Source: an uncultured Pseudomonadota bacterium (lineage in GTDB: Bacteria; Desulfobacterota; Syntrophorhabdia; Syntrophorhabdales; CAYQXL01). From it: a stretch of 64,000 nt of DNA. Positions 21,817 to 57,483 of this stretch are shown here, one piece after another. Position 1 is the stretch's first letter; each line of letters begins with the position of its first letter. A program made the translations under genes and the position numbers. The stretch is from assembly GCA_964651435.1 (NCBI GenBank), contig CAZYVU010000001.1, positions 54,440 to 118,439 of the forward strand. Reading direction: 5' to 3'. The notes below the pieces were generated by a model. The model ran no database searches and had not been told where the DNA came from. It worked only from the letters and a program-made list of their open reading frames with translations.

Positions 21817-21896
21817 CATATTGTATTACTTATTGAAGCTGTGCTTCCGCTTTCCAATTGCCCAAAAATATTGTATACAAACTATGGAAGTCGACC

Positions 21897-23450
21897 ATGG
21901 ATGGCCCGGTAACAAACGTAGGTGAATGGATAGGTAGGTGGGCGGCCATTACGCCGCAAAAAGTGGCTGTCATCGCTGAAGGCGAGGCCATCACGTACGC
22001 ATCCCTTAACGCAAACACCAACCGCCTCTGCAACCTTCTTCTGAAGCAAGGCATCTCGAAGGGAGACCGGGTGGCCGTTCTCCTGCGCAACTGCAGGCAA
22101 TATGTGGAGATATTTTTTGCCGTGTCGAGAATCGGCGCCATTCTCGTACCCCTGAACTGGAGGCTGGCCGTTCCCGAGATGGAGTTCATTCTGCGCGACA
22201 GTGCCGCCCGGTGTATCATCTTCGACAGCGAATTCCTGGAAAACGCCGATGCCCTCAGGGCCAAGGCCCCGGGTGACTACTCGCTGGCGGTGGGAAAGGG
22301 AGGCGACGCGCCGGACACCCTCCCTGCATGGGCAGATGGTTACGGAGAGGCGACGGCGGGCCGATCGACGGACAGGCCGGAGCATACCTGGACGGTGGGG
22401 GACGACGATCCCCACATCCTTATGTACACGTCGGGCACCACCGGCACGCCGAAAGGGGCCGTCCTGTCCCATCAGAAGACCTTCTACAACGCCCTCAATG
22501 CGGCAAACTACTTCAACCTCACCTCATCGGACACCATCATCATTAACAGACCGCTCTTTCATTCCGGAGGCCTCATCGTGGAAATGGCGCCTGCTCTCTA
22601 CAAGGGGGCCACCGTCATCATCGGCAGGCGCTTCAGCCCTCAGCAGATCCTGGAAACCGTTGCGAAACACAAGGTGACGATCCTGGAGCTCCCGGCCACG
22701 GTCTACAACTTTATGCTCCGGGAGTGCACCATAGACAATTACGATTTGAGCTCCCTCAAGTGCTGTTTCACGGGCGGCGAACGCGTGCCCGTGGCCCTCC
22801 TTGCGGCCTTGGCCGAGAAAGGGCTTGTGGTCTCACAGATTTACGGCCTCACCGAGGCGTCGACCCTCTTCTGGCTCCCGACTGAATACGCCAGTGCAAA
22901 AATGGGCTCCGTGGGAAAGCCGGTCTTTCACGGCACCGTGCGCATCGTCAACGACGAAGGCGGGCCGGTCGGGCCGGGAGAGGTGGGTGAGATCATCGTC
23001 AGCGGCCCCATCGTAATGAACGGCTACTGGCGGCAGCCGGAACTGACGGCCGAGGTGATTCAGGACGGGTGGCTCAGAACGGGAGACCTGGGGCGAACGG
23101 ACGACGAAGGATTTGTCTACATAATCGACCGCAAGAAAGACATGTTTATCAGCGGCGGTGAGAACGTATACCCCGCCGAGGTGGAAAAGGTATTGTTCGG
23201 CCATTCCGCCGTGGCGGATGCCGCCGTCATCGGTGTGGCTGACGAGAAATGGGGAGAGGTGGGCAAGGCATTCGTTGTCCTCCGCCAGGGTCACGACGCC
23301 GATGCGCCGACCCTCATGGGCCACCTCAGCCGCGCCCTGGCGAAATACAAGGTGCCAAAATACGTTGAATTCGTTGACTCCCTGCCCAAGACCGCTTCCG
23401 GCAAGGTTTTGAAAAGGCTCCTGAAAACAAAAAGGGCCAAGACCGGTTGA
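21897..23450 (+). CDS. AMP-dependent acyl-CoA synthetase/ligase
   Basis: ORF 21858..23450 (track start is TTG; ATG at 21897 preferred). AMP-binding motif YTSGTTGTPKGA, TGD...D.EG, and C-terminal K(V/I)PK..EF...LPKT.SGK. Confidence 0.9.
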   Translation: MDGPVTNVGEWIGRWAAITPQKVAVIAEGEAITYASLNANTNRLCNLLLKQGISKGDRVAVLLRNCRQYVEIFFAVSRIGAILVPLNWRLAVPEMEFILRDSAARCIIFDSEFLENADALRAKAPGDYSLAVGKGGDAPDTLPAWADGYGEATAGRSTDRPEHTWTVGDDDPHILMYTSGTTGTPKGAVLSHQKTFYNALNAANYFNLTSSDTIIINRPLFHSGGLIVEMAPALYKGATVIIGRRFSPQQILETVAKHKVTILELPATVYNFMLRECTIDNYDLSSLKCCFTGGERVPVALLAALAEKGLVVSQIYGLTEASTLFWLPTEYASAKMGSVGKPVFHGTVRIVNDEGGPVGPGEVGEIIVSGPIVMNGYWRQPELTAEVIQDGWLRTGDLGRTDDEGFVYIIDRKKDMFISGGENVYPAEVEKVLFGHSAVADAAVIGVADEKWGEVGKAFVVLRQGHDADAPTLMGHLSRALAKYKVPKYVEFVDSLPKTASGKVLKRLLKTKRAKTG

Positions 23451-23487: not shown

Positions 23488-23563
23488 GGGGCTGTAGCTC
23501 AGATGGGAGAGCGCTTGACTGGCAGTCAAGAGGTCGACAGTTCGATCCTGTTCAGCTCCACCA
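23488..23563 (+). tRNA. tRNA-Ala (anticodon GGC)
   Basis: Acceptor GGGGCTG/CAGCTCC with the G3:U70 identity pair, anticodon loop CTGGCAG, T-arm GACAGTTCGATCCTGTC, encoded CCA. Confidence 0.93.
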
Positions 23564-25672: not shown

Positions 25673-25790
25673 CGGCAGAATGGAGAGCTTTTCGGGATTG
25701 TCTCCCGCACATCGGACGGCTTTCACCATCCAAGGCACCGTAGTCTCCAACTCGGTTGCCGAACCCCTTTCGGGGTTGCTCCTGATGCTG
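25673..25790 (-). ncRNA. Structured 5' leader (candidate riboswitch/attenuator aptamer region), class unassigned
   Basis: Lies between the promoter and the terminator. GNRA hairpin AACCCC-GAAA-GGGGTT (25762..25777). Hairpin CGGGA-gacaa-TCCCG (25693..25707). Possible closing helix TGGAGA/TCTCCA (25744..25749 with 25681..25686). The terminator 5' arm CCGTCC is duplicated at 25714..25719. Confidence 0.45.
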
Positions 25791-25794
25791 CAAT

Positions 25795-47517: not shown

Positions 47518-48257
47518 AGGTCGAAAACGGGCCCCTCCTTACATACCCTTCTGTATGGGTTTTCTTCGTCTTCAACGCGCACGACACAGCCAAAGCAGAG
47601 CCCGAGGCCGCAGGCCATCCTCTCTTCGACGGCCACCTGGCACGGAAGGGGCCGCCCTTCCAGGAGCCCCTTAAGGCTCTTAAGCATGCCCTGCGGCCCG
47701 CAGGCGAAGATGACAGGGTCCAGCGCCCGAAGCTTTTCCAGGTGCGTCGCCAGCAAGTCTACGACCGTACCGTGAAAGCCGAGGGATCCGTCAACCGTCG
47801 CCACCAGGCTGTTGCCGCCTTTGAGGCCGGCCAAGAGCCCTGCCTCGGAGGCGGTTGTGCATCCGTACATGACCTTTAACGGACCTCTGTGGCCCTCTGC
47901 CAGGAGCCGCACTCCCGCTATTCCTATGCCGCCTGCAACGACTACGGCGGCCCGGTCCCTATCGACGGTAAACCCGTTTCCCAGAGGCCCCAGCACCATA
48001 AGGGGATCGCCGGATTGCATGGTCGCCAGGAAGCGGCTGCCATCACCGACCACCTTGTACATAATGGTGATGACCTCATCTTGAATGCCGCAGATGCTGA
48101 AGGGCCGTCGAAGAAAGATCTCTGCGCCGGGCATCCGCACCATAACGAACTGGCCCGGAAGAACGGGCCCGATGGGCCTTGCCAGCTCCAGGGTCACAAC
48201 AAAATGGCCCTGTCCAAGTGCGTTGTTGCTGACGATAATTCCTTGAACGTCATCCAT
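47499..48257 (-). CDS. pyrK: Dihydroorotate dehydrogenase electron-transfer subunit PyrK
   Basis: In-frame part of ORF 47499..48305. FAD/NAD-binding fold RPFS, and the C-terminal 2Fe-2S motif MACG.G.C.GC. Confidence 0.9.
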   Translation of the reverse strand: MDDVQGIIVSNNALGQGHFVVTLELARPIGPVLPGQFVMVRMPGAEIFLRRPFSICGIQDEVITIMYKVVGDGSRFLATMQSGDPLMVLGPLGNGFTVDRDRAAVVVAGGIGIAGVRLLAEGHRGPLKVMYGCTTASEAGLLAGLKGGNSLVATVDGSLGFHGTVVDLLATHLEKLRALDPVIFACGPQGMLKSLKGLLEGRPLPCQVAVEERMACGLGLCFGCVVRVEDEENPYRRVCKEGPVFDLWQLSL

Positions 48258-48756
48258 GAGAAACAGCCCTCTTCTCTTCCACTTTACCGACCGCCGGGCC
48301 GGCACCTGCCGAGCCTACGGCGAGCTGCATCACAAGCGCATCCTCGTTGCTTTCACTGTAATACCTTTTTCGCCTCCCGACAGCTTTGAATCCGAAAGAC
48401 CGGTAGAGCGAAATGGCCGGCACGTTGGATTCCCTCACCTCAAGGAAGTAGTCCTTCACGCCTGCGGCATTGCACCTGTCAATGACAAAGGCCATAAGGA
48501 CCCGGGCCAGCCCCTGCCGCCTCCAGCGCCGGTCGACGGCCACATTCATCACGTGGGCTTCGTCAGCCACCGCGTAAAGGACTATGTAGGCCGCCACGAC
48601 ACCTTCTCTCTCGAAAACAAAGGCCCTGGTAATTGAAGAATCGAGTGCCTCCTCGAAAAAGGTGCGCTTCCACGGCTGCGGAAAGGACTCCGTTTCTATG
48701 AGCAGGACACGGTCCACGTCGGACCTATTCATCTCCCTGGGCGTATCATGCTCCAT
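48250..48756 (-). CDS. rimI: Ribosomal-protein-alanine N-acetyltransferase RimI (GNAT)
   Basis: In-frame part of ORF 48250..48921. GNAT motif A (VAVDRRWRRQGLARVLM), plus LEVRESN..A..LY..FGF. Confidence 0.85.
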   Translation of the reverse strand: MEHDTPREMNRSDVDRVLLIETESFPQPWKRTFFEEALDSSITRAFVFEREGVVAAYIVLYAVADEAHVMNVAVDRRWRRQGLARVLMAFVIDRCNAAGVKDYFLEVRESNVPAISLYRSFGFKAVGRRKRYYSESNEDALVMQLAVGSAGAGPAVGKVEEKRAVSHG

Positions 48757-49327
48757 GACGGGCAAAACGATCGAGATCCCCCCGGTTGTTGATGTTGGTA
48801 AAGACCGAAAGGCCCCTGTTCCGGAAGCTCGGGTCGGGCGCCAACTCTTTGACCTTGACATAGGCAAAGAGGTCCATGATGCGAAACCGGCCATGTTCCA
48901 AGAGGTAGAGCGCCGGCGCAAGACAGGCTCTGCCGTACATGGCGTGCAGGGGCTCCAGGCCCTCGGGCGTCCTGGGAATAATCACGTCCTCGCCCCCTGC
49001 CTTATTTACGATGCAGAGGAGCCCTTCTTCGCGAATGTAGGGCATATCGCAGCCGAGGACGAAGACATATTCCGTACCGGCAAACATGAGGGCGGACGCA
49101 ATACCCACGAGCGGGCTGGGGAAGGGCAGGCAGTCGCCGACGAGAGGCACGTCCATTCCGTCGAAGCGCCTGTGCTGACTCGACACAATGAAGACTTTCT
49201 CAAAAACCCTTCGTGCCGTCTCATAGACCCTCTCGGTCAGCATGGCCCCATCGAAAAGAAGGGTGGCCTTGTCCTGCCCCATCCTCGTACTTCTGCCGCC
49301 GGCGAGTATGGCACACGACACCTTCAC
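48746..49327 (-). CDS. mobA: Molybdenum cofactor guanylyltransferase MobA
   Basis: N-terminal ILAGGRSTRMG.DK motif and the central D.P motif (GCDMPYI). Confidence 0.88.
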   Translation of the reverse strand: MKVSCAILAGGRSTRMGQDKATLLFDGAMLTERVYETARRVFEKVFIVSSQHRRFDGMDVPLVGDCLPFPSPLVGIASALMFAGTEYVFVLGCDMPYIREEGLLCIVNKAGGEDVIIPRTPEGLEPLHAMYGRACLAPALYLLEHGRFRIMDLFAYVKVKELAPDPSFRNRGLSVFTNINNRGDLDRFARHGA

Positions 49328-49512
49328 TGTACTTCTTTCTTACCACCTTTTTCGGACCGAGTAAAGGCGAGGACCCTGGGGGAAGGGCGCACAGTGCACT
49401 TTTCCCTTGACAACAGCCAGTTATCATGAAAATATAATGCGTTAACCGCGCTCCATATTTCTGGCTTCAGTCAGGTCTTATCGTGGAAAGAGAACGTCTT
49501 TGAGGAGGACCT

Positions 49513-49995
49513 ATGAAGGGCTACCTTATGTTAGTTGAAAAACTGAGCACGTACATGAGCGTTATCGGTGGCTGCGCGCTCACCTTCATTATGTTGCTCA
49601 CCGTGGCCGACGTGACCCTGCGTCTCTTTGGCCACCCCATCGTCGGCACCTTCGAACTCGTGAGCTTCGGAGGGGCCGTTGCCATCGGCTTTGCAATTCC
49701 CATCACCTCCTGGGTTCGGGGCCACATTTATGTGGACTTCTTTGTAGCAAAGTTTCCGCCGGGCCTCAAGAACACATTCAACTTAGTGACCCGGCTTATG
49801 GGCATAGTCATCTTTGTTCTCATCGGGTGGCAACTGCTGATTCTCGCGGGAGACTTCTACAAGTCCGGCGAGGTCTCCCTTACGAGGCACATCCCCTTCT
49901 ATCCTATTACCTACGGTATGGGGTTTTGCGCCTTTCTTCAGTGCCTTGTGCTTATCGGTGACATCATCAAAATTTTTGGAGGCGATTATGAGTGA
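49513..49995 (+). CDS. TRAP transporter small permease (DctQ family)
   Basis: 160 aa with 4 TM helices. GAGGAGG RBS. ATGAGTGA overlap with the large permease. Confidence 0.88.
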   Translation: MKGYLMLVEKLSTYMSVIGGCALTFIMLLTVADVTLRLFGHPIVGTFELVSFGGAVAIGFAIPITSWVRGHIYVDFFVAKFPPGLKNTFNLVTRLMGIVIFVLIGWQLLILAGDFYKSGEVSLTRHIPFYPITYGMGFCAFLQCLVLIGDIIKIFGGDYE

Positions 49996-51295
49996 ACCCG
50001 TTGTAGGGCTCATCGCCCTCGGAGTCGTCCTTATCCTTTTCCTTACCGGCATCGAACTGGCGTTTGCCATGATCATCATCGGCTTTCTGGGCTTTGCTTA
50101 CCTTATCTCCATGGACGCAGCCCTGAGCCTGCTTGGTAAGGACGTTTTCGACGTTCTCAACTCGTACAGTTTTACGGTCATCCCGCTTTTCGTCTTGATG
50201 GGCCAGGTGGCCTACAACTCCGGCATAGCAAAACGGCTCTTCGACACGTCCTATAAGTTCATAGGCCACATCCCCGGAGGCCTCGCCATGGCGACAGTGG
50301 GAGGCGCAACGATTTTTAAAGCCATATGCGGATCCTCCCCGGCCACAAGCGCCACCTTTGCGAGCGTTGCCGTTCCCGAGATGGACCGCTACAACTACGA
50401 CCGCCGCCTCTCTACCGGCATCGTCGCCACCGTCGGAACCTTGGGCATTCTCCTGCCACCCAGCGTGACCCTTATCATCTACGGCATCATCACCGACCAG
50501 TCCATCGGTCGCCTTTTTCTGGCAGGCATCTTCCCCGGCCTCATGATAGCTGCCTTCTTTATAGTCATCATTTACGGCTGGTGCGTCATGAACCCCGCCC
50601 TGGGGCCGAAGGGAGAGCGGTCCTCCTGGGGAGAGCGTATCAGGGCGATCCCCCAGGTTCTTTGGGTCCTTGTCATATTCGTCCTCATCATCGGAGGCAT
50701 CCTGAAGGGCTTCTTCACCCCCACCGAGGCCGGCAGCGTGGGCACATTCCTCGTCCTTCTCCTTACCTTCCTCAAGCGTGACCTCAACATAAAGGGATAT
50801 ATAAAGTCCGTCTCCGAGTCACTTAGGACGGCCACGGTAGTGCTCTTCCTTATCACCGGCTCCACGGTCCTCGGCCACTTCATTACGGTGACCACCATAC
50901 CCATGGTGGCGGCAGACTGGATCGTCAGCCTCAGCATGCCTTCCTGGCTTATCCTTGTCTTCATCGCCCTTATTTATCTCATAGGCGGCTCTTTCATCGA
51001 CGACCTGGCCTTTATGATCCTTGCTACCCCCATCTTCTATCCTGCCATCCTCAAGCTGGGCTATAACCCCCTCTGGTTTGGCATCATGATCGGCATCACC
51101 GTTATGATGGGCGTCGTCGTACCCCCCATGGCCATATGCGTCTTCGTCGTCAAGCAGATCACCAAGACAAACTTCAACACCATCTACAAGGGCGTCTATC
51201 CCTTTCTCCTCAGCCTTGTCGTCGGGGGCATCATCGTCTTTATCTTCCCTCAGATTGCAACCTGGCTTCCCGAGAAGCTTATGGGCATGCCCTAA
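49988..51295 (+). CDS. TRAP transporter large permease (DctM family)
   Basis: In-frame part of ORF 49946..51295. 435-aa polytopic protein with DctM-like repeats. Confidence 0.9.
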   Translation: MSEPVVGLIALGVVLILFLTGIELAFAMIIIGFLGFAYLISMDAALSLLGKDVFDVLNSYSFTVIPLFVLMGQVAYNSGIAKRLFDTSYKFIGHIPGGLAMATVGGATIFKAICGSSPATSATFASVAVPEMDRYNYDRRLSTGIVATVGTLGILLPPSVTLIIYGIITDQSIGRLFLAGIFPGLMIAAFFIVIIYGWCVMNPALGPKGERSSWGERIRAIPQVLWVLVIFVLIIGGILKGFFTPTEAGSVGTFLVLLLTFLKRDLNIKGYIKSVSESLRTATVVLFLITGSTVLGHFITVTTIPMVAADWIVSLSMPSWLILVFIALIYLIGGSFIDDLAFMILATPIFYPAILKLGYNPLWFGIMIGITVMMGVVVPPMAICVFVVKQITKTNFNTIYKGVYPFLLSLVVGGIIVFIFPQIATWLPEKLMGMP

Positions 51296-51340
51296 TCCAT
51301 AGTCCGGGGCAGCGCCTCTTTTCCCTATCGGCGCCAATAC

Positions 51341-51379
51341 AAAAGGGGCTTCTCCCGGATGGGAGAAGCCCCTTTTTCT
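51341..51379. terminator. Bidirectional rho-independent terminator between convergent dctM and coxG-like genes
   Basis: AAAA-GGGGCTTCTCCC-ggat-GGGAGAAGCCCC-TTTTT. Perfect 12-bp stem flanked by an A-run and a T-run. Confidence 0.85.
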
Positions 51380-51399
51380 TTGTCGCTTTGTTGCCTCGG

Positions 51400-51852
51400 C
51401 TATCCTACTGCCGCCAGCTTCTTCTGCAGATTCTTCGTGAATTCCTTCTCCGTGTCCTTGGCCTTCGCCCTCATGATGCGGTCTCCGAACATAGCCAGCT
51501 TTCCAACGATGACTGTGTCCGTCTTGTAGGCAACCTCTACGTTGCCGTCGCCCAGATCCTTCAGGTCCATAATTGTCTTCTGTTTGAAGTGGCCAAGCTT
51601 GGTCATGTCCTCCCCTTCACCCTCGATCTCCATATGGGTAGGGGCATTCATGACGGTGATAAAGTTCCTGAACTTAAGGGCCACCTTGATGGGGCCGACC
51701 TTCTGCTTCAGGAGGCAGTCATAGGTCTTCTCGTCAATCTTTTCAACCTTCTCTGCGCCCGGGAGGCAGGTGGTGATCGTCTCCGGCTCGAGAAGCAGAT
51801 CCCAAAGCTTCTGGATCGGTGCTTTTACAGTGAAACTACCCTCTATGATCAT
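51400..51852 (-). CDS. CoxG/SRPBCC family protein
   Basis: 150 aa. The N-terminus (F.V.AP....W..L..PE....C.PG.E......) is typical of carbon monoxide dehydrogenase subunit G-like proteins. Confidence 0.8.
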   Translation of the reverse strand: MIIEGSFTVKAPIQKLWDLLLEPETITTCLPGAEKVEKIDEKTYDCLLKQKVGPIKVALKFRNFITVMNAPTHMEIEGEGEDMTKLGHFKQKTIMDLKDLGDGNVEVAYKTDTVIVGKLAMFGDRIMRAKAKDTEKEFTKNLQKKLAAVG

Positions 51853-51895
51853 ATGAACCTCCTTAAATTCAATGTCTGCAGCCTTCCTTAAAGGA

Positions 51896-52111
51896 TTACA
51901 GGTTGGGCTGCGCCTTATCTATGAGCTCCTTCAATGTATCGTAGCTCTTGTTGCCGGGCTCCGAAATCTGCGCCAAGAGCAGGTCTATGTATGAATGACC
52001 CTGTGACTCCACCCACTGCCTGTGGGCCTTGTCGCCGGTGCCGAAAATATGGCGGGCACAGGACAGGGTTGTCGGATATTCCTTTTTGCATGCAGGACAC
52101 TTAACGTTCAT
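51896..52111 (-). CDS. Small hypothetical protein with N-terminal zinc-finger-like CxxC..CxxH motif
   Basis: 71 aa, MNVKCPACKKEYPTTLSCARH. Sits between the Mo subunit and coxG-like genes. Confidence 0.5.
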   Translation of the reverse strand: MNVKCPACKKEYPTTLSCARHIFGTGDKAHRQWVESQGHSYIDLLLAQISEPGNKSYDTLKELIDKAQPNL

Positions 52112-52123
52112 CGGTCACCCTCC

Positions 52124-54445
52124 TTACTTTGCTTCTTGCTTTTCCCGGATTGCCTTCAGCAGCGCTTCCGGAAGTATGGGATTTTCTTTCATCTGCACTC
52201 CAAGGGCGTGGTAAATTGCGTTCCCCATGGCCGCCGCTGTCGGGTTTGTGAGGCCTTCTCCGGCCTCCTTGGCGCCGTAAGGGCCTTCGGGCTCGTACGT
52301 TTCCACCTCGAGTACCGGACAATCAGGCATTTCCGGGGCCCTGATGATCTTGTAGTCTACCAGGTTCGGGTTCAGCATCTTGCCATCCTCAAATGGCATA
52401 TATTCGAGATAGCCATACCCGATTGCCATGGACGCAGCGCCCTCGAGCTGACCCGTAAGGCCGAGCGGATTGATGGGCTGCCCGCAGTCGTGGGCCGTTA
52501 CGCAGTTGAGAAGCCTCATCTTGCCTGTTTCCTCATCGATTTCAAGCTCCACAGCCTGGACCATGTAACTGTATGCAGGGGAAATCATACCCTTCCGGTG
52601 AGGTGTATAGTAGCCGCGTCCGACGATTTTCTGTCCGTCTTTTCCGCGGATCGCTTCCCTTACCAGCTCAAAGTAATCGATCCCCCTTTCAGGCCGGGCC
52701 TTCAGGTGGGCCCAGCGGTCCCGAATGTCCAAATCGTAAACAATGTTCGGATTGAGCTTGGCGGCTGCAAATTCGAGAAGCTGCTTCTTGACGCTTTCTG
52801 CCGCCATCTTTACGGCGTTTCCTGCCATGAGGGTCTGCCGGGAGCCCCATGCGCCGAGGTCCGGAGGGCAATGGTCGGTGTCACCCGAGTGGACAGTAAT
52901 GTCCTCAACCCTCACTCCCAAGGTCTCTGCGCAGATGATGGCCATGGTCGTGTTTGAGCCCTGGCCTATCTCCTGACAGCCCACGTGGAGCTCCACCGTT
53001 CCGTCGTAGTTCACTGTAACAACGGCGGAGGAGAAGGAGTAGGGGGAGTCAAACCAGTTAAAGATACCGCCCGACATGAATCCGCAGGAAGAAATACCGA
53101 TCGCCCTGTTTTTTGGCAGCTCGCCCTTTGACTTGATCCATTCGTCAATCTTCGTCAGACATTCGTCGAGACCACAGCTCTGAATGTAGGCCTGGCCGGG
53201 GACTTCGTAACCCGGGGTGTGGCCGTTCTTCCGCCGGATATCGATGGGGTCGAGGCCGAGGTCCGTGGCAATCCAGTCGATCTGCTGCTCGGAGCAGAAC
53301 ATGGCCTGGGGTGCGCCGAAACCCCTCATGGAGGTGGAAGGCATTGTGTTCGTGTAGACCCTGTAGCCGTCGTACCGGTAGGCCTTCCATTTGTAGGGGA
53401 AGGAGTGGAAGAATCCCGACAGGTAAAGGGCTGTTGCACCCATGCCTGTGTACGCGCCGCCGTTGCTGAACATGCGCGATTCCCTGGCGCAGAAGGTACC
53501 ATCCTTCTTTACGCCCGTCCGCACGTAGTAAAACATGGGCGTTCTTCTCTTCGAGGCGATAAAATCCTCTTCGCGGCTGAACACGATCTTCACGGGCCGG
53601 TACGTTTTCATGGATAGGATGGCGCTGCAGAACTGGGCGCCGTCGAGCTCGAACTTGCCGCCAAAGCCGCCACCGACGTATTTCGCAATAACCCGCACGT
53701 CGCCCTCGCGCAGCCCCAGAACGCCGGCCAGCAGCGCCTGGTGGTAGTATGCGGACTGTGTTCCCGTCCAAACAAAGAGTTTGCCGTCGGGTGTGAAGCT
53801 GGACACTGCATCTCTCGTTTCCATGCACATGTGGTGCTGGCCACCGCACTTGAACCAGTCTTCCCTGACATAATCGGCCTCTTCGAAGGCCTCTTCAACC
53901 TCGCCCCACTCGATGTGGCGGGTGACGTTGATGTTCCTTTCAACGCCCTCGTGGATGACGGGGGCTTCCTTTTTAATAGCATCAAGTGGCTCGTAGACGG
54001 CCTCAAGCACTTCGTATTCCACTTCGATGAGGTCAAGGGCCTGCTCGGCGATCTCTTCCGTAATCGCTGCGACGGCAGCAACGGGTTCACCGATGTACCG
54101 CACCTTCTCGACGGGCAGGATCTGCTCGTCGCAGAGTTCTTCATACCTTCTCCAGATGCCCTGCTTTATGCCGAGCGTGTCCTTGCCGGTTACTACAGCC
54201 TTGACACCCGGAAGGGCCAAAGCCTGGCTCGCGTCGATGTTGACGATCCTGGCGTGCGGGTGGGGGCTCCGGAGGATTTTGCCGTAGAGCATGCCGGGAA
54301 GCGTCACATCAAAGGTGTATGTGGCTCTTCCGGTAACCTTGGCTATGCCGTCTACGTTGTGGACGGGCGTATTGATGACCGAATATTTCATGCCGCCTAC
54401 AACATGGACAGGCGTATCAATGACTGCTTTGATCTCGTGACTCAT
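52124..54445 (-). CDS. Xanthine dehydrogenase family molybdopterin-binding (large) subunit
   Basis: 773 aa. Aldehyde oxidase/XDH a/b-hammerhead plus MoCo-binding domains (GGGFGGK, RGFG.PQ and E..G-type active-site region). Confidence 0.9.
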   Translation of the reverse strand: MSHEIKAVIDTPVHVVGGMKYSVINTPVHNVDGIAKVTGRATYTFDVTLPGMLYGKILRSPHPHARIVNIDASQALALPGVKAVVTGKDTLGIKQGIWRRYEELCDEQILPVEKVRYIGEPVAAVAAITEEIAEQALDLIEVEYEVLEAVYEPLDAIKKEAPVIHEGVERNINVTRHIEWGEVEEAFEEADYVREDWFKCGGQHHMCMETRDAVSSFTPDGKLFVWTGTQSAYYHQALLAGVLGLREGDVRVIAKYVGGGFGGKFELDGAQFCSAILSMKTYRPVKIVFSREEDFIASKRRTPMFYYVRTGVKKDGTFCARESRMFSNGGAYTGMGATALYLSGFFHSFPYKWKAYRYDGYRVYTNTMPSTSMRGFGAPQAMFCSEQQIDWIATDLGLDPIDIRRKNGHTPGYEVPGQAYIQSCGLDECLTKIDEWIKSKGELPKNRAIGISSCGFMSGGIFNWFDSPYSFSSAVVTVNYDGTVELHVGCQEIGQGSNTTMAIICAETLGVRVEDITVHSGDTDHCPPDLGAWGSRQTLMAGNAVKMAAESVKKQLLEFAAAKLNPNIVYDLDIRDRWAHLKARPERGIDYFELVREAIRGKDGQKIVGRGYYTPHRKGMISPAYSYMVQAVELEIDEETGKMRLLNCVTAHDCGQPINPLGLTGQLEGAASMAIGYGYLEYMPFEDGKMLNPNLVDYKIIRAPEMPDCPVLEVETYEPEGPYGAKEAGEGLTNPTAAAMGNAIYHALGVQMKENPILPEALLKAIREKQEAK

Positions 54446-54447
54446 GA

Positions 54448-54939
54448 TTATTCCTCCTTGTATTTGCCTGTTACCACTGAGTCTATGGCCCTGACGATAC
54501 TGTTGTAGCCTGTGCAGCGGCAGAGGTTCCCTTCGATGCTCTCTTTTACCTCATGAATGGACGGGGCTCTCTGCTCCCTTTCCACCTCACCGACGAACGC
54601 CGTGGCCGACATCAGCATACCGGCGGTACAGAAACCGCACTGGAAGGCCCCCTGATCGAGGAAAGCCTTCTGAATGGGGGAAAGCTTGCCGTTGTCTTCC
54701 AGGCCCTCTACCGTGGTCACACTCAGGCCGTCGACGCTCATGGCAAGAACAGAACAGGACTTGACCGACGCGTCGCCTATCATGACGGTGCAGCATCCGC
54801 ACGACACAGTTTCACAGGCCCGCTTCGTCCCTGTCAGGCCGAGGTGGTCCCTTATCACTTCCACCAGCAAGGTTTTGGGGTTGATGTAAAGCTCGTAGGC
54901 CTCGCCGTTTACCGTTATATTAAGTAGTTGTTTTTCCAT
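54448..54939 (-). CDS. (2Fe-2S)-binding small subunit of XDH-family enzyme
   Basis: Plant-type ferredoxin cluster C.....C..C..C (TKRACETVSCGCCTV) and second cluster QCGFCT.G, C.CTGY. Confidence 0.92.
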   Translation of the reverse strand: MEKQLLNITVNGEAYELYINPKTLLVEVIRDHLGLTGTKRACETVSCGCCTVMIGDASVKSCSVLAMSVDGLSVTTVEGLEDNGKLSPIQKAFLDQGAFQCGFCTAGMLMSATAFVGEVEREQRAPSIHEVKESIEGNLCRCTGYNSIVRAIDSVVTGKYKEE

Positions 54940-54950
54940 TCTCCGCCTCC

Positions 54951-55826
54951 TTACGCTTGCGCCTTGGCCTTATCCCAGGCCGCCTTTAACATCCGCTTGG
55001 TCAGAACGTAAAGCAGATGCCTCCGGAACTCTTCGGTCGCATGAATGTCGGCAACAGGCTCCGAAACCTCTTGGGCAGCCCTGCCCACCGCCTCAAAGAG
55101 GGCCTCGTCCGGATTCTTTCCGATAAGCATCTCCTCTGCCTGTTTCAGCCTCAGCGCCGTAGGCGCCGCGTTGCCGAGAACGACACGCACGTCTTTGCAG
55201 GTGCCGTCAGCGTTCAGAGTCATGGACGCTGCTGCCCCAACGATGCCCATATCGGCGTCGATAAGGTTGAATTTCTTGTAAGCAACGCCGGTCCGAGGCT
55301 CCGGTGTCGGGACCTGCACACCGAGAACCATTTCGTCCTTCTCCATGACCGTCTCAAAATAGTCGGCAAAGAACTCCTCGAGGGGCATGGTCCTTTCGCC
55401 TCGCTCGCCACCTACGGCAATGGAGGCATTCATGGCGATCAGAACCGGGGCGGGGTCGCCGGAGGGGTCGGCGTGGGCGAGGTTCCCACCGATGGTCCCC
55501 CAGTTCCGGGTCTGGATCGATGCCAGCTTTGTCTCCATTTCTGCAAGGGCAGGGTACTTTTCCTGGATCACAGCCGACTTCTCGATCTCGCGATGGGTCG
55601 TCGTGGCGCCGATCTTGAGCCCCTCTTTGGGGTCAAAGGCGATGTAGCGGAGTTCCCTCAGGTTCTTGATGTCCATCAGGTAGTCGGTGGCCACCAAGCC
55701 CTGTCTCATGACGATAAGCAGAGACTGGCCGCCGCAGATTACCTTGCACTCATCCTTGTGCTCGGCGAGCATGGAGAATGCTTCCTTAACGTTCGCGGGT
55801 CTTAGGTACGTAAAATCGTGTATCAT
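54951..55826 (-). CDS. FAD-binding (medium) subunit of XDH-family enzyme (CoxM-like)
   Basis: FAD_binding_5 motifs (ICGGQSL, TIGGNL) and a CO-dehydrogenase flavoprotein C-terminal domain. 291 aa, with no extra Cys cluster. Confidence 0.9.
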   Translation of the reverse strand: MIHDFTYLRPANVKEAFSMLAEHKDECKVICGGQSLLIVMRQGLVATDYLMDIKNLRELRYIAFDPKEGLKIGATTTHREIEKSAVIQEKYPALAEMETKLASIQTRNWGTIGGNLAHADPSGDPAPVLIAMNASIAVGGERGERTMPLEEFFADYFETVMEKDEMVLGVQVPTPEPRTGVAYKKFNLIDADMGIVGAAASMTLNADGTCKDVRVVLGNAAPTALRLKQAEEMLIGKNPDEALFEAVGRAAQEVSEPVADIHATEEFRRHLLYVLTKRMLKAAWDKAKAQA

Positions 55827-56077
55827 AACTCTCTCCTTTCTACGATTTCTTCAACGTTTCTGATGCAGTTAGGACCCAATTCTATAAGATCAGGCATGCC
55901 GAAGGTGCCGTCCGGCGATCCTGCCTGTTTGCCCGGCTTTTCCGTTGGGGCCGGCGGCGCCCCCGCATGGCCCCTGTACTTGGGGGCAAAACAGAGATAG
56001 TAGTGCCGCCCCCGGTAAATCGCGCACTCAACACAGACGCCCCCGGATATGGGGCACGCCATCTTAACCTTTGCCAT
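55823..56077 (-). CDS. Small Cys-rich hypothetical protein (C-x6-C-x2-C-x10-C)
   Basis: In-frame part of ORF 55823..56101. ATG at 56077 is preceded by GAAGGAGG. Its stop overlaps the FAD-subunit start by 4 nt. Confidence 0.6.
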   Translation of the reverse strand: MAKVKMACPISGGVCVECAIYRGRHYYLCFAPKYRGHAGAPPAPTEKPGKQAGSPDGTFGMPDLIELGPNCIRNVEEIVERREL

Positions 56078-56253
56078 GGTAGGGATCCTCCTTCTGAACA
56101 ATCGTTGTTGTGGAAGTATGCAAGCAGAGATAGTTCACGATTCTTGCCCGAAAGTCAAGGGGTATCGCCCCTGGATTGGGTTAGAATTTTTTACCATACT
56201 AAACAGGATAAATCAAGCAGTTTATTTTTTAGGTACTTACTTGCGCTACTTGC

Positions 56254-56269
56254 GTTCATTATAATGAAC
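56254..56269. promoter_or_regulatory. Perfect 16-bp palindrome GTTCATTATAATGAAC (candidate operator)
   Basis: Lies in the 306-bp divergent region between the hydroxylase operon and the TRAP binding-protein gene. Preceded by a tandem TACTTGCG repeat. Confidence 0.45.
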
Positions 56270-56407
56270 ATCAGCAAGTTCGGCGGTATGGGCTTTCGCC
56301 GCCGACAGGACTCGGAGCCGAATCCCCGCCGACCCGAAAAGGGTTGACAAAGTTTTGGAGATTTCATTAACTATAATTTAGACAAACAAAACTCTTAGGA
56401 GGGGAGC

Positions 56408-57427
56408 ATGAACAAATCGTTTTTAGTCAAGCTTTTCGTGGCGGTCTTTCTGGTCTCCGTATGCATGGTTTCCGTACCGAGCCTGTCATCGGCCCAGATC
56501 AAACTCAATTACTCCAATTTCTTCCCGGCACCGCATAAAAACAGCCAGCTTGCCGAGCAGTGGGTCAAAGAGGTGGAAAAGAGGACCAACGGCAAGGTTA
56601 AAATCACCTACTACCCCGGCAACACACTTACCCCTGCGGCCCAGACCTTTGACAGCGTAAAGAAGGGCATCGCCGACATCGGCTACAGTTGCTTTGCTTA
56701 CACGCCCGGCAGGTTCCCCATGATGGAGGCCATCGACCTTCCCCTGGGTTACAAGAACGGCGCACAGGCAACGGCACTCATCAACGCCTACTATGAGAAG
56801 TTCAAACCGAAAGAGCTGGAGGACGTACACGTCCTCTACCTTCATGCCCACGGACCCGGCATCCTCCATACCAAGAAGCCCGTCAACAAGATTGAAGATG
56901 TCAAAGGCATGAAGATTAGGGCCACAGGTCTGGCTGCCAAGGTCGTCACCGCTCTGGGCGGCGCACCCGTTGGAACTACCATGCCGGAAACCTACGATGC
57001 CCTTAGGACAGGCGTTGCCGACGGCGCACTGGCCCCCGTTGAGGCCCTCCAGGGCTGGAAGTGGGGCGAGGTTGTCAGCTCCACGACAAAGGATTTCGGC
57101 GCGGCATATACCACGGGCATGTTCATCGTCATGAACAAGTCTAAGTGGAATTCCCTGCCCGAAGACGTGAAGAAGGTTTTCACCGACGTGAGCAAGGAAT
57201 GGATAGGGAAGCAGGCAAAACTCTGGGATGACATTGACAAGGAAGGCTACGAGTTCGTAAAGAAACGGGGCAACAAGATTATAGATCTGTCGGCCGCTGA
57301 AGACGGGAAGTTTGCCGCAGCAGTAAAGCCGATCCTTGATGAGTACGTGAAGAACGCCAAGGCGAAGGGCGTACCGGGCGACCAGGGCCTGGCCTTTGCC
57401 GTCGAATTCCTGAAGAAGCAGAAGTAG
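56408..57427 (+). CDS. TRAP transporter substrate-binding protein (DctP family)
   Basis: Signal peptide. DctP-type fold hallmarks as recalled (N.F.P..H...) and length. AGGAGGGGAG RBS. Confidence 0.88.
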   Translation: MNKSFLVKLFVAVFLVSVCMVSVPSLSSAQIKLNYSNFFPAPHKNSQLAEQWVKEVEKRTNGKVKITYYPGNTLTPAAQTFDSVKKGIADIGYSCFAYTPGRFPMMEAIDLPLGYKNGAQATALINAYYEKFKPKELEDVHVLYLHAHGPGILHTKKPVNKIEDVKGMKIRATGLAAKVVTALGGAPVGTTMPETYDALRTGVADGALAPVEALQGWKWGEVVSSTTKDFGAAYTTGMFIVMNKSKWNSLPEDVKKVFTDVSKEWIGKQAKLWDDIDKEGYEFVKKRGNKIIDLSAAEDGKFAAAVKPILDEYVKNAKAKGVPGDQGLAFAVEFLKKQK

Positions 57428-57450
57428 TAAATAGCCGGATTAGGATCGAT

Positions 57451-57483
57451 AAGGAGGGGCCACAGACCCCTCCTTATTTTTTT
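57451..57483 (+). terminator. Rho-independent terminator after the TRAP binding-protein gene
   Basis: AAGGAGGGG-ccacaga-CCCCTCCTT followed by ATTTTTTT. Confidence 0.85.

Follow-up and report, generated by a model that had tools for sequence, protein, structure and literature searches.

A molybdenum enzyme operon between the separated genes of a TRAP transporter: a possible island for aromatic-acid catabolism in a strict anaerobe

What does a molybdenum enzyme do between the two parts of a transporter? The question is raised by a locus in a 64,000-nucleotide stretch of DNA from an uncultured bacterium of the Syntrophorhabdales (contig CAZYVU010000001.1 of GenBank assembly GCA_964651435.1, positions 54,440 to 118,439 of the forward strand), here called the window and numbered from its first nucleotide. 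The membrane genes (dctQM) and the binding-protein gene (dctP) of a tripartite ATP-independent periplasmic (TRAP) transporter stand apart on its plus strand, and between them lies a minus-strand operon for a three-subunit enzyme that carries a molybdenum cofactor (MoCo), flavin adenine dinucleotide (FAD) and iron-sulfur clusters. An account drawn from the letters of the DNA alone, the sequence-only reading, had proposed that one organic acid is both imported by the transporter and acted on by the enzyme, and had held that the substrate cannot be deduced.

The answer that we favour, tentatively and at somewhat short of an even chance, is a catabolic island for a phenolic aromatic acid in a strict anaerobe of the Syntrophorhabdaceae type, in which a variant enzyme related to HcrA dehydroxylates the coenzyme A (CoA) ester of that acid. 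The acid would most probably be 4-hydroxybenzoate or a close analogue. DctP would bind the aromatic carboxylate outside the cell and DctQM would import it; an acyl-CoA ligase encoded elsewhere in the genome would make the aryl-CoA thioester; and the molybdenum enzyme, with a catalytic subunit that is a distant sister of HcrA, would reductively remove the ring hydroxyl to yield benzoyl-CoA. The substrate, its use as a CoA ester and the direction of the reaction we infer from the evidence set out below.

Organization of the locus

The sequence-only reading named ten genes, and all ten were found at its coordinates with Pfam and NCBIfam domains in agreement; the start codons of dctM and of the first operon gene had to be corrected. 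The order that it gave for the six minus-strand genes between dctQM and dctP also held in the list of open reading frames (ORFs) and in the domain scans. The transporter and operon genes are as follows.

49513-49995, plus strand: dctQ, TRAP small membrane subunit, 160 residues (PF04290, E 3.9e-17)
49988-51295, plus strand: dctM, TRAP large membrane subunit (PF06808, E 2.5e-92; TIGR00786, 331.4 bits against a cut-off of 268.45)
51400-51852, minus strand: CoxG/SRPBCC protein, 150 residues, last gene of the operon (PF06240, E 6.9e-21)
51896-52111, minus strand: C2H2 zinc-finger-like protein, 71 residues (CPxC-x12/14-H-x8-H; no family match)
52124-54445, minus strand: MoCo large subunit, 773 residues (PF01315, PF02738, PF20256)
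54448-54939, minus strand: small subunit with two [2Fe-2S] clusters, 163 residues (PF01799, PF00111)
54951-55826, minus strand: FAD subunit, 291 residues, CutM-like (PF00941, PF03450)
55823-56077, minus strand: four-Cys protein, 84 residues, first gene of the operon (C-x6-C-x2-C-x10-C and RGRH)
56408-57427, plus strand: dctP, TRAP solute-binding protein, 339 residues, with a Sec signal peptide; mature part about residues 30-339 (PF03480, E 2.2e-50)

The dctM ORF opens with TTG at 49946, and the likely start is the ATG at 49988, which overlaps the 3' end of dctQ. The ORF of the four-Cys gene extends to 56101; its true start is the ATG at 56077 (MAKVKMAC...), because the orthologues and a database entry of 100% identity (P0121, 84 residues) begin there. 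Its stop codon shares the sequence ATGA with the start codon of the FAD gene. An alternative start of the MoCo subunit at Met19 would give 755 residues. DctP, DctQ and DctM are all encoded at the locus, with 5.1 kb and the six-gene operon between dctQM and dctP and a promoter-like site for each part; the usual TRAP arrangement, with all three genes side by side in a single operon, is not found here. The remainder of the window is occupied by housekeeping genes (recJ, pyrD, pyrK, a GNAT gene, CTP synthase, rpoN, dnaJ and others), so that the TRAP genes and the operon together make up an island.

The molybdenum enzyme

The three enzyme genes have the make-up of a three-subunit molybdenum hydroxylase. 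The large subunit contains Ald_Xan_dh_C, MoCoBD_1 and MoCoBD_2, all far above their cut-offs, the FAD subunit FAD_binding_5 and CO_deh_flav_C, and the small subunit Fer2 and Fer2_2. The closest characterised homologue of the large subunit is HcrA of the 4-hydroxybenzoyl-CoA reductase HcrABC (4-HBCR) of Thauera aromatica (PDB 1RM6/1SB3), likewise from an anaerobic aromatic degrader. HcrA provides both the best NCBIfam match (TIGR03194, 677.7 bits, below the cut-off of 994.55) and the top solved structure (1RM6_A, 446 bits, 36-38% identity in a full-length alignment), the next solved matches being a CoxL-like protein (278 bits), quinoline oxidoreductase (273 bits) and nicotinate dehydrogenase (272 bits). 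Residues 724-731 of the window protein, GAKEAGEG, align with GAKEASEG of HcrA, so that the acidic motif KEA[GS]EG is conserved; this motif presumably holds the catalytic Glu of the family.

The likeness does not extend to the whole enzyme. All three subunits fall below the Hcr equivalog cut-offs (TIGR03194/03195/03193: 677.7 against 994.55, 134.3 against 404.55 and 146.5 against 257.8 bits). The small subunit stays below the cut-off of every NCBIfam equivalog model, its best match being the glyceraldehyde dehydrogenase gamma subunit, and the FAD subunit (291 residues, against 324 in HcrB) is closer to CutM of CO dehydrogenase, its best solved match (1FFU_C, 167 bits), than to HcrB (76.6 bits). 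Residue 117 of the FAD subunit aligns with about position 115 of the HcrB model TIGR03195 and, in the solved HcrB chain, with residue 155, and about 40 HcrB residues are therefore without a counterpart. Nor was an inserted Cys cluster found in 48 related FAD subunits with a complete ORF (about 287-311 residues). The gap coincides with the [4Fe-4S] loop of four Cys and about 40 residues that defines 4-HBCR and, according to the literature on 1RM6, gives it reverse electron flow. The sequence-only reading had been right to note the absence of the extra Fe-S insertion of 4-HBCR from this subunit.

Where, then, does the enzyme stand in relation to HcrABC? A scan of one genome per species yielded 76 loci, of which those of at least 67% identity, L001-L059 and the fragments L068 and L073, make up the in-group, the subfamily of the window; counts below use L001-L059. 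Large subunits of L060-L076 (Acidobacteria, Elusimicrobia and others) are 38-43% identical to HcrA and 37-43% identical to the clade of the window. With these loci equally distant from both, the family of the window is a separate branch of the HcrA-related group and not the HcrA orthologue, and on sequence grounds the enzyme is a distinct subfamily rather than an orthologue of Thauera HcrABC. Database homologues of the large subunit number in the thousands at 76-86% identity; their sources are Syntrophorhabdus, Syntrophus, Desulfomonile and metagenome bins related to them. IMG gives many of them the name '4-hydroxybenzoyl-CoA reductase alpha', others carry the name 'CO/xanthine dehydrogenase', and the family is already widely auto-annotated as 4-HBCR.

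The CutM-like FAD subunit and the coxG gene recall aerobic CO dehydrogenase (CoxMSL with CoxG), and raise the question of whether the enzyme is a general aldehyde oxidoreductase or a CO dehydrogenase-like enzyme, working with CoxG at the membrane and unconnected with aromatic acids. The best NCBIfam match of the small subunit would fit such an enzyme as well. The large subunit does not: its scores against CoxL, aldehyde oxidoreductase and PaoC are far below the HcrA score, and it reaches 342 and 284 bits with the CoxL-type NCBIfam models, under their cut-offs of 950 and 991. It is without the active-site loop of CoxL, reading SMRGFGAP at that position, where form I CoxL has what we take to be its signature, AYRCSFR. 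The locus also lacks the maturation genes coxD, coxE and coxF, the host is a strict anaerobe, and the neighbours of the operon are aromatic-acid transporters, CoA ligases and MarR or GntR regulators. An enzyme of this general kind is very improbable.

Two small metal-binding proteins and CoxG

Compared with Thauera HcrABC, the operon adds three conserved genes, those for the four-Cys, C2H2 and CoxG proteins. The 84-residue protein consists of an invariant C-x6-C-x2-C-x10-C with RGRH, a variable linker and short conserved C-terminal motifs. In the 71-residue protein the ligands C-x2-C-x12/14-H-x8-H are invariant in 36 orthologues and a third Cys is not conserved, a C2H2-type pattern that suits its earlier description as a small Zn-finger-like protein. 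Neither matches a Pfam or NCBIfam family, and PDB sequence searches returned chance-level matches only, except for a weak C2H2-finger likeness of the 71-residue protein. A word-indexed database search found 43 clusters of the 84-residue protein, all 'hypothetical', and an exhaustive HMMER search among 1.84 billion representatives found only 32 clusters of the 71-residue protein.

The distribution of the two proteins follows that of the enzyme. By motif scan, the four-Cys motif is present in all 51 in-group loci that hold the upstream DNA, and the motif of the 71-residue protein in 57 of 59, the other two being truncated contigs; at the equivalent positions of 15 outgroup loci neither occurs (0/15 for each). 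Both were therefore inherited together with the subfamily, of which, judged by this distribution, they are hallmark components that the sequence-only reading overlooked. CoxG sits 3' of the 71-residue gene in nearly all related loci, and the six-gene order is kept throughout, the exceptions being L040, in which CoxG has moved upstream, and L045, in which an acyl-CoA dehydrogenase takes its place.

The three proteins may be extra subunits, or dedicated factors for assembly or electron entry. Their presence invites the further proposal that the operon encodes an unrecognised class of aryl dehydroxylase of syntrophs and strict anaerobes, in which the four-Cys protein would replace the [4Fe-4S] loop as the electron-entry centre and the C2H2 and CoxG proteins would complete the subunit set or form a membrane-docking module. 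Such an enzyme would differ from the ferredoxin-driven Thauera enzyme in electron donor and energetic cost. We regard the proposal as decidedly doubtful. AlphaFold2, given a 23-sequence alignment, produced no confident fold for the 84-residue protein (predicted local distance difference test score, pLDDT, 49.8). As a homologue of the HcrB Fe-S loop the four-Cys protein was rejected: its Cys spacing (x6, x2, x10) is unlike the spacing that we take HcrB to have, and no alignment was found. The 'replacement' of the loop would therefore be an analogy only.

The transporter and its likely ligand class

DctP yielded a model of high quality (AlphaFold2, pLDDT 91.5). Its first Foldseek match is 4N6D of Desulfovibrio salexigens (35% identity, E 1e-34), the listed title of which shows no ligand. 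Ranks 2-27 follow at E 1e-31 to 1e-27, and the next ligand class begins only at 2e-22. Among these ranks are marine metagenome proteins 'specific for aromatic acid ligands' (5I5P/5IZZ) and TarP with ferulate, caffeate, coumarate, cinnamate or 4-hydroxyphenylacetate, together with Dde_0634, Rfer_2570 and a Bordetella protein (BB24..) whose listed titles show no ligand. Dde_0634 binds indole acids and D-tryptophan, of which the D-amino-acid ligand alone was confirmed here. The TarPQM structures (7NQG, 7NR2, 7NSW and others; also 5I5P/5IZZ) give query-normalised template-modelling scores (TM-scores) of 0.77-0.82 at 26-30% identity, and TarP-type structures match ahead of all other ligand classes.

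A search by sequence ranked the structures in the same order. By its predicted fold DctP is a member of the aromatic-acid clade of TRAP binding proteins, and the structural and sequence rankings together make an aromatic monocarboxylate the likely ligand class. Residue R171, a candidate for the arginine that in TRAP binding proteins contacts the carboxylate of the substrate, is invariant in 34 orthologues. The TRAP genes of the window differ from contiguous dctPQM, as in TarPQM, in being split by the six opposite-strand genes.

Linkage of transporter and enzyme

Is the arrangement more than an accident of one genome? The window proteins were mapped on all loci by tblastn, and arrangements were counted in the 41 loci with both flanks readable:

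14 of 41 loci: the exact split layout of the window
3 of 41 loci: dctP kept, dctQM lost (L012, L028, L056)
1 of 41 loci: dctQM present without dctP (L025)
3 of 41 loci: the TRAP genes together in one operon next to the module, otherwise oriented (L022, L050, L057)
20 of 41 loci: no TRAP gene within about 7 kb

With three further loci that have shorter flanks, 17 related species-level genomes share the split layout, Syntrophorhabdus aromaticivorans UI (NZ_KI867150.1, 797589-815844) among them, and the arrangement is therefore not due to chance. The sequence-only reading had proposed conservation of this synteny as a test of its claim; the test was passed, yet the link is confined to certain lineages. 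The dctQ orthologues in the related loci are 58-71% identical to that of the window.

The in-group includes one Anaerolineae and one Dehalococcoidales genome as well as S. aromaticivorans UI. Compared with the window, the molybdenum subunit keeps an identity of about 80% in Syntrophorhabdaceae, Syntrophales and Desulfomonile, 72% in the Anaerolineae genome and 67% in the Dehalococcoidales genome. In the same Syntrophorhabdus loci RecJ and PyrK are about 52% and PyrD about 67% identical; the figure for DctP is about 72%. The high identity of the molybdenum subunit points to unusually strong constraint, horizontal spread, or both.

Some loci show how the layout varies. The loss of dctQM in L012, L028 and L056 (about 11.0-11.2 kb) is clean, coxG abutting mobA with dctP intact, and in L025, where dctQM is present, no dctP lies upstream. 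In L007 (11.0-12.9 kb) coxG and dctM are separated by about 1.9 kb of additional DNA; an ORF in it clusters with IstB-like (IS21 helper) ORFs of other loci.

The control regions were compared next to the arrangements. The 330-bp region between dctP and the four-Cys gene was aligned across 22 sequences, the window and 21 loci of the same arrangement, and the DNA upstream of dctQ across 18.

56130-56158, minus strand: sigma-70-like promoter of the operon (-35 TTGACT, 56158-56153; 17-nt spacer; -10 AACTAT, 56135-56130)
56254-56269, no strand assigned: palindrome GTTCATTATAATGAAC (GTTCA-N6-TGAAC), candidate operator between the divergent dctP and operon promoters
56344-56349, plus strand: -35 element TTGACA of the dctP promoter, with GTTGACAAA conserved in all aligned relatives
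49407-49412, plus strand: -35-like TTGACA of dctQM's own promoter, with CTTGACA upstream of dctQ in 17 of 18 aligned sequences

The operon promoter was not listed by a consensus promoter scan; relatives keep CTTGACTTT and AATAAT in it at 17-nt spacing. The palindrome is conserved in 19 of the 22 aligned sequences, and GTTCA-N6-TGAAC has five strand-wise matches at three sites in the window, against 0.39 expected. Seven loci without TRAP genes have it as well, about 250 bp upstream of the operon. The palindrome is therefore an element of the operon that, in the lineage of the window, is placed to affect dctP too. The cluster contains no regulator gene, and MarR or GntR genes lie near the module in some relatives. 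Control of the operon and, in this lineage, of the divergent dctP probably rests with a regulator that binds GTTCA-N6-TGAAC. Upstream of dctQ the palindrome was sought and rejected, no GTTCA-N6-TGAAC being conserved there in the 18 sequences.

A second perfect palindrome, GTTCATCGTCATGAAC, lies inside the dctP coding sequence (57121-57136), with an imperfect version there in relatives; it may reflect conserved codons only.

Together, these data bear on a second explanation, that the adjacency of transporter and operon is a lineage-specific accident and that the transporter imports an aromatic acid unrelated to the substrate of the molybdenum enzyme. The 20 loci without a TRAP gene speak for this explanation, as do the loci that hold dctP alone or dctQM alone, the separate dctQM promoter without the palindrome, and the far higher conservation of the molybdenum subunit than of DctP or the neighbours. 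Partners could also have been exchanged, since very many DctP homologues exist at about 67-75% identity and at least two are encoded on each of two single contigs, the S. aromaticivorans chromosome among them. An accident is harder to reconcile with the occurrence of TRAP genes beside the operon in three arrangements and in different lineages (the split layout, dctPQM upstream in L050 and L057, and dctMQP downstream in L022), or with the control region of about 330 bp that dctP shares with the operon and its conserved palindrome. Other organic-acid transporters, a TAXI-type TRAP system and an ATP-binding cassette (ABC) system with a Peripla_BP_6 binding protein, likewise lie near the operon in L077 and L078. 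We consider an accidental association distinctly unlikely.

The earlier claim that transporter and enzyme handle one organic acid thus survives in part. A functional link is plausible, given the 17 split loci, the two other arrangements, the divergent promoters around the palindrome and the aromatic-acid clade of DctP. It is not universal, and it does not visibly extend to the control of dctQM.

Coenzyme A ligases and the substrate

If the transporter delivers an aromatic acid, does the enzyme use it as such or as a CoA thioester? As the sequence-only reading had stated, no CoA ligase or regulator is encoded within the cluster. The neighbouring ORFs of the 59 in-group loci were clustered to find recurrent neighbours. 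Behind the TRAP genes and the housekeeping flank of the lineage, an AMP-forming acyl-CoA ligase is the accessory gene that recurs most often, in eight loci. It lies between an upstream dctPQM and the operon in L057 and L050 (Syntrophus-type), and between the operon and a downstream dctMQP in L022. In L045 a co-directional string comprises the ligase, the four-Cys, FAD, FeS and MoCo genes, the gene for the 71-residue protein and an acyl-CoA dehydrogenase, with 7 bp separating the ligase from the four-Cys gene. These ligases and the L045 string favour a CoA-ester substrate. The closest solved relatives of the operon-linked ligases are fatty-acyl, malonyl, feruloyl and coumaroyl ligases, a range that is not diagnostic.

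In view of HcrA as the closest characterised relative, the ligases adjacent in eight relatives and the ligase and acyl-CoA dehydrogenase of the L045 string, the statement that the substrate cannot be deduced was too pessimistic as regards its class: the evidence points to an aromatic acid as CoA thioester. By the same evidence the enzyme would act on the thioester, rather than on the acid in the free form in which it is imported. According to the literature S. aromaticivorans UI, one of the split-type genomes, degrades phenol via 4-hydroxybenzoate. Isophthalate found no support as substrate; the paper on the UI isophthalate cluster (SynarDRAFT_0374/0375) mentions no TRAP or molybdenum genes.

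A parallel is found in the strict anaerobe Desulfatiglans anilini, in which a phenol-induced cluster (H567DRAFT_02053-02055) encodes an HcrA-like alpha subunit with 'CO dehydrogenase medium' and 'small' subunits (PMC6114531). The cluster adjoins a 4-hydroxybenzoate-CoA ligase, and the levels of its proteins are higher on phenol than on benzoate (PMC6114531). As annotated, it resembles the operon of the window in combining an Hcr-like alpha subunit with CO dehydrogenase-like medium and small subunits, and it is linked to 4-hydroxybenzoate metabolism. It differs in sitting with pps/ppc genes and the ligase and not between TRAP genes, and no small proteins or CoxG are mentioned for it (PMC6114531).

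The alternative is that the enzyme acts on a free aromatic or N-heteroaromatic acid delivered by the transporter, with no CoA ester, either hydroxylating it with water as nicotinate-type hydroxylases do, or dehydroxylating a phenolic acid as do the urolithin dehydroxylases of the xanthine dehydrogenase family. In the window and its 17 relatives the transporter genes flank the operon directly without a ligase, which speaks for such an enzyme, and the missing [4Fe-4S] loop and the resemblance of the FAD and FeS subunits to hydroxylases and CO dehydrogenases rather than to Hcr are in keeping with it. Precedents exist: dehydroxylases of the same family that act on phenols other than CoA esters are reported (PMC11760930, PMC12658268), and the D. 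anilini authors leave the dehydroxylation of free 4-hydroxybenzoate open (PMC6114531). Yet the nearest characterised catalytic subunit belongs to a CoA-ester enzyme, by a wide margin over the nicotinate, quinoline, CO and aldehyde enzymes, and a ligase not only shares one gene string with the acyl-CoA dehydrogenase in L045 but adjoins the operon in seven other loci. Use of the free acid seems to us unlikely.

Dehydroxylation of a CoA ester, the reading favoured here, has its own difficulties. Identity between the large subunit and HcrA is only 36-38%, other uncharacterised clades being at least as close to HcrA, neither the FAD nor the FeS subunit is Hcr-like, and the loop that defines 4-HBCR is missing. 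On the side of the transporter, TRAP genes are missing from the vicinity in half of the relatives, dctQM has been lost in three, and the many DctP homologues, at least two of them on each of two single contigs, make a strictly dedicated pair of TRAP halves less likely. On the side of the ligase, neither the window nor any of the 17 split-type loci has one in or beside the cluster. The operon-linked ligases fall into at least three non-orthologous groups, and their adjacency could in part reflect the abundance of ligases in these genomes. The only AMP-forming ligase of the window (21858-23450, plus strand), 26 kb from the cluster and next to a tRNA-Ala gene (23488-23563), is unsupported as the missing ligase, being 30-37% identical to the operon-linked ones.

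Significance

Syntrophorhabdus and its relatives are the main degraders of phenol and phenolic acids in methanogenic reactors and sediments. To our knowledge, removal of the ring hydroxyl has been studied only in the ferredoxin-dependent enzyme of denitrifiers. The literature searched contained no account of the non-Hcr features of this family, of its obligatory small proteins, or of a link to an aromatic-acid TRAP transporter. If the module is the dehydroxylase of the syntrophs, an identity of about 80% across orders, far above that of adjoining housekeeping genes, would reflect strong selection, its cofactor set and small proteins would bear on how dehydroxylation is paid for at the thermodynamic limit, and the linked DctP would offer a direct handle on the physiological substrate. 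Annotation would gain as well: at present the labels '4-hydroxybenzoyl-CoA reductase' and 'CO/xanthine dehydrogenase' are spread over thousands of metagenomic genes, and both small genes go under the label 'hypothetical'.

Flanking genes and other features

Three further features lie in or beside the island.

48746-49327, minus strand: mobA-like gene (PF12804)
51341-51376, no strand assigned: hairpin between the convergent dctM and coxG genes, a bidirectional intrinsic terminator (terminator scan; 16-bp stem flanked by an A-run and a T-run)
57448-57478, plus strand: terminator-like hairpin 3' of dctP (terminator scan)

The sequence-only reading had placed mobA beside the system. The gene is present at that position, and as a component of the system it was rejected, as it matches MobA rather than MocA models. 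It rides in a flank of mobA, GNAT, pyrK, pyrD and recJ genes that is conserved only in the lineage of the window; it stays where dctQM is deleted, L046 lacks it, and no locus outside the lineage has it. The gene is a bystander in the housekeeping flank. The longest ORF of the adjacent GNAT (rimI-like) gene, 48250-48921 on the minus strand, overlaps the mobA-like ORF by about 175 nt, and the true GNAT start is probably further downstream.

Other oxidoreductase genes accompany the operon in some relatives. In seven loci (L020, L022, L032, L049, L051, L052 and L059; about 1.2-6.0 kb) a trio of genes, encoding a FAD_binding_4 protein, a CCG-domain Fe-S protein and a second FAD_binding_4 protein, stands directly upstream of the molybdenum operon; the trio is found also in L077 (3534-7941), and a MarR gene lies beside it in four of the seven loci and in L077. 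Possibly its products act as an associated oxidoreductase in the same pathway. Upstream of the ligase in L045 (465-4494) is a second enzyme of the xanthine dehydrogenase type, whose FAD subunit, of 800 residues, is a fusion with a GltD-like NAD(P)H oxidoreductase module that has a Fer4_20 domain. In L030, L031, L038 and L054, which form one sub-lineage, a fused NfnAB-like gene lies a few kb downstream of the module (about 12.7-15.0 kb); its product, of 764 residues, joins a DHOD-B electron-transfer subunit to an NADPH-dependent glutamate synthase, and an IstB-like fragment lies between it and the module in L030, L031 and L054.

Elsewhere in the window, and unrelated to the molybdenum and TRAP genes, a SAM-I/IV riboswitch aptamer is present at 25679-25793 on the minus strand (47.3 bits, against an Rfam gathering score of 41.1).

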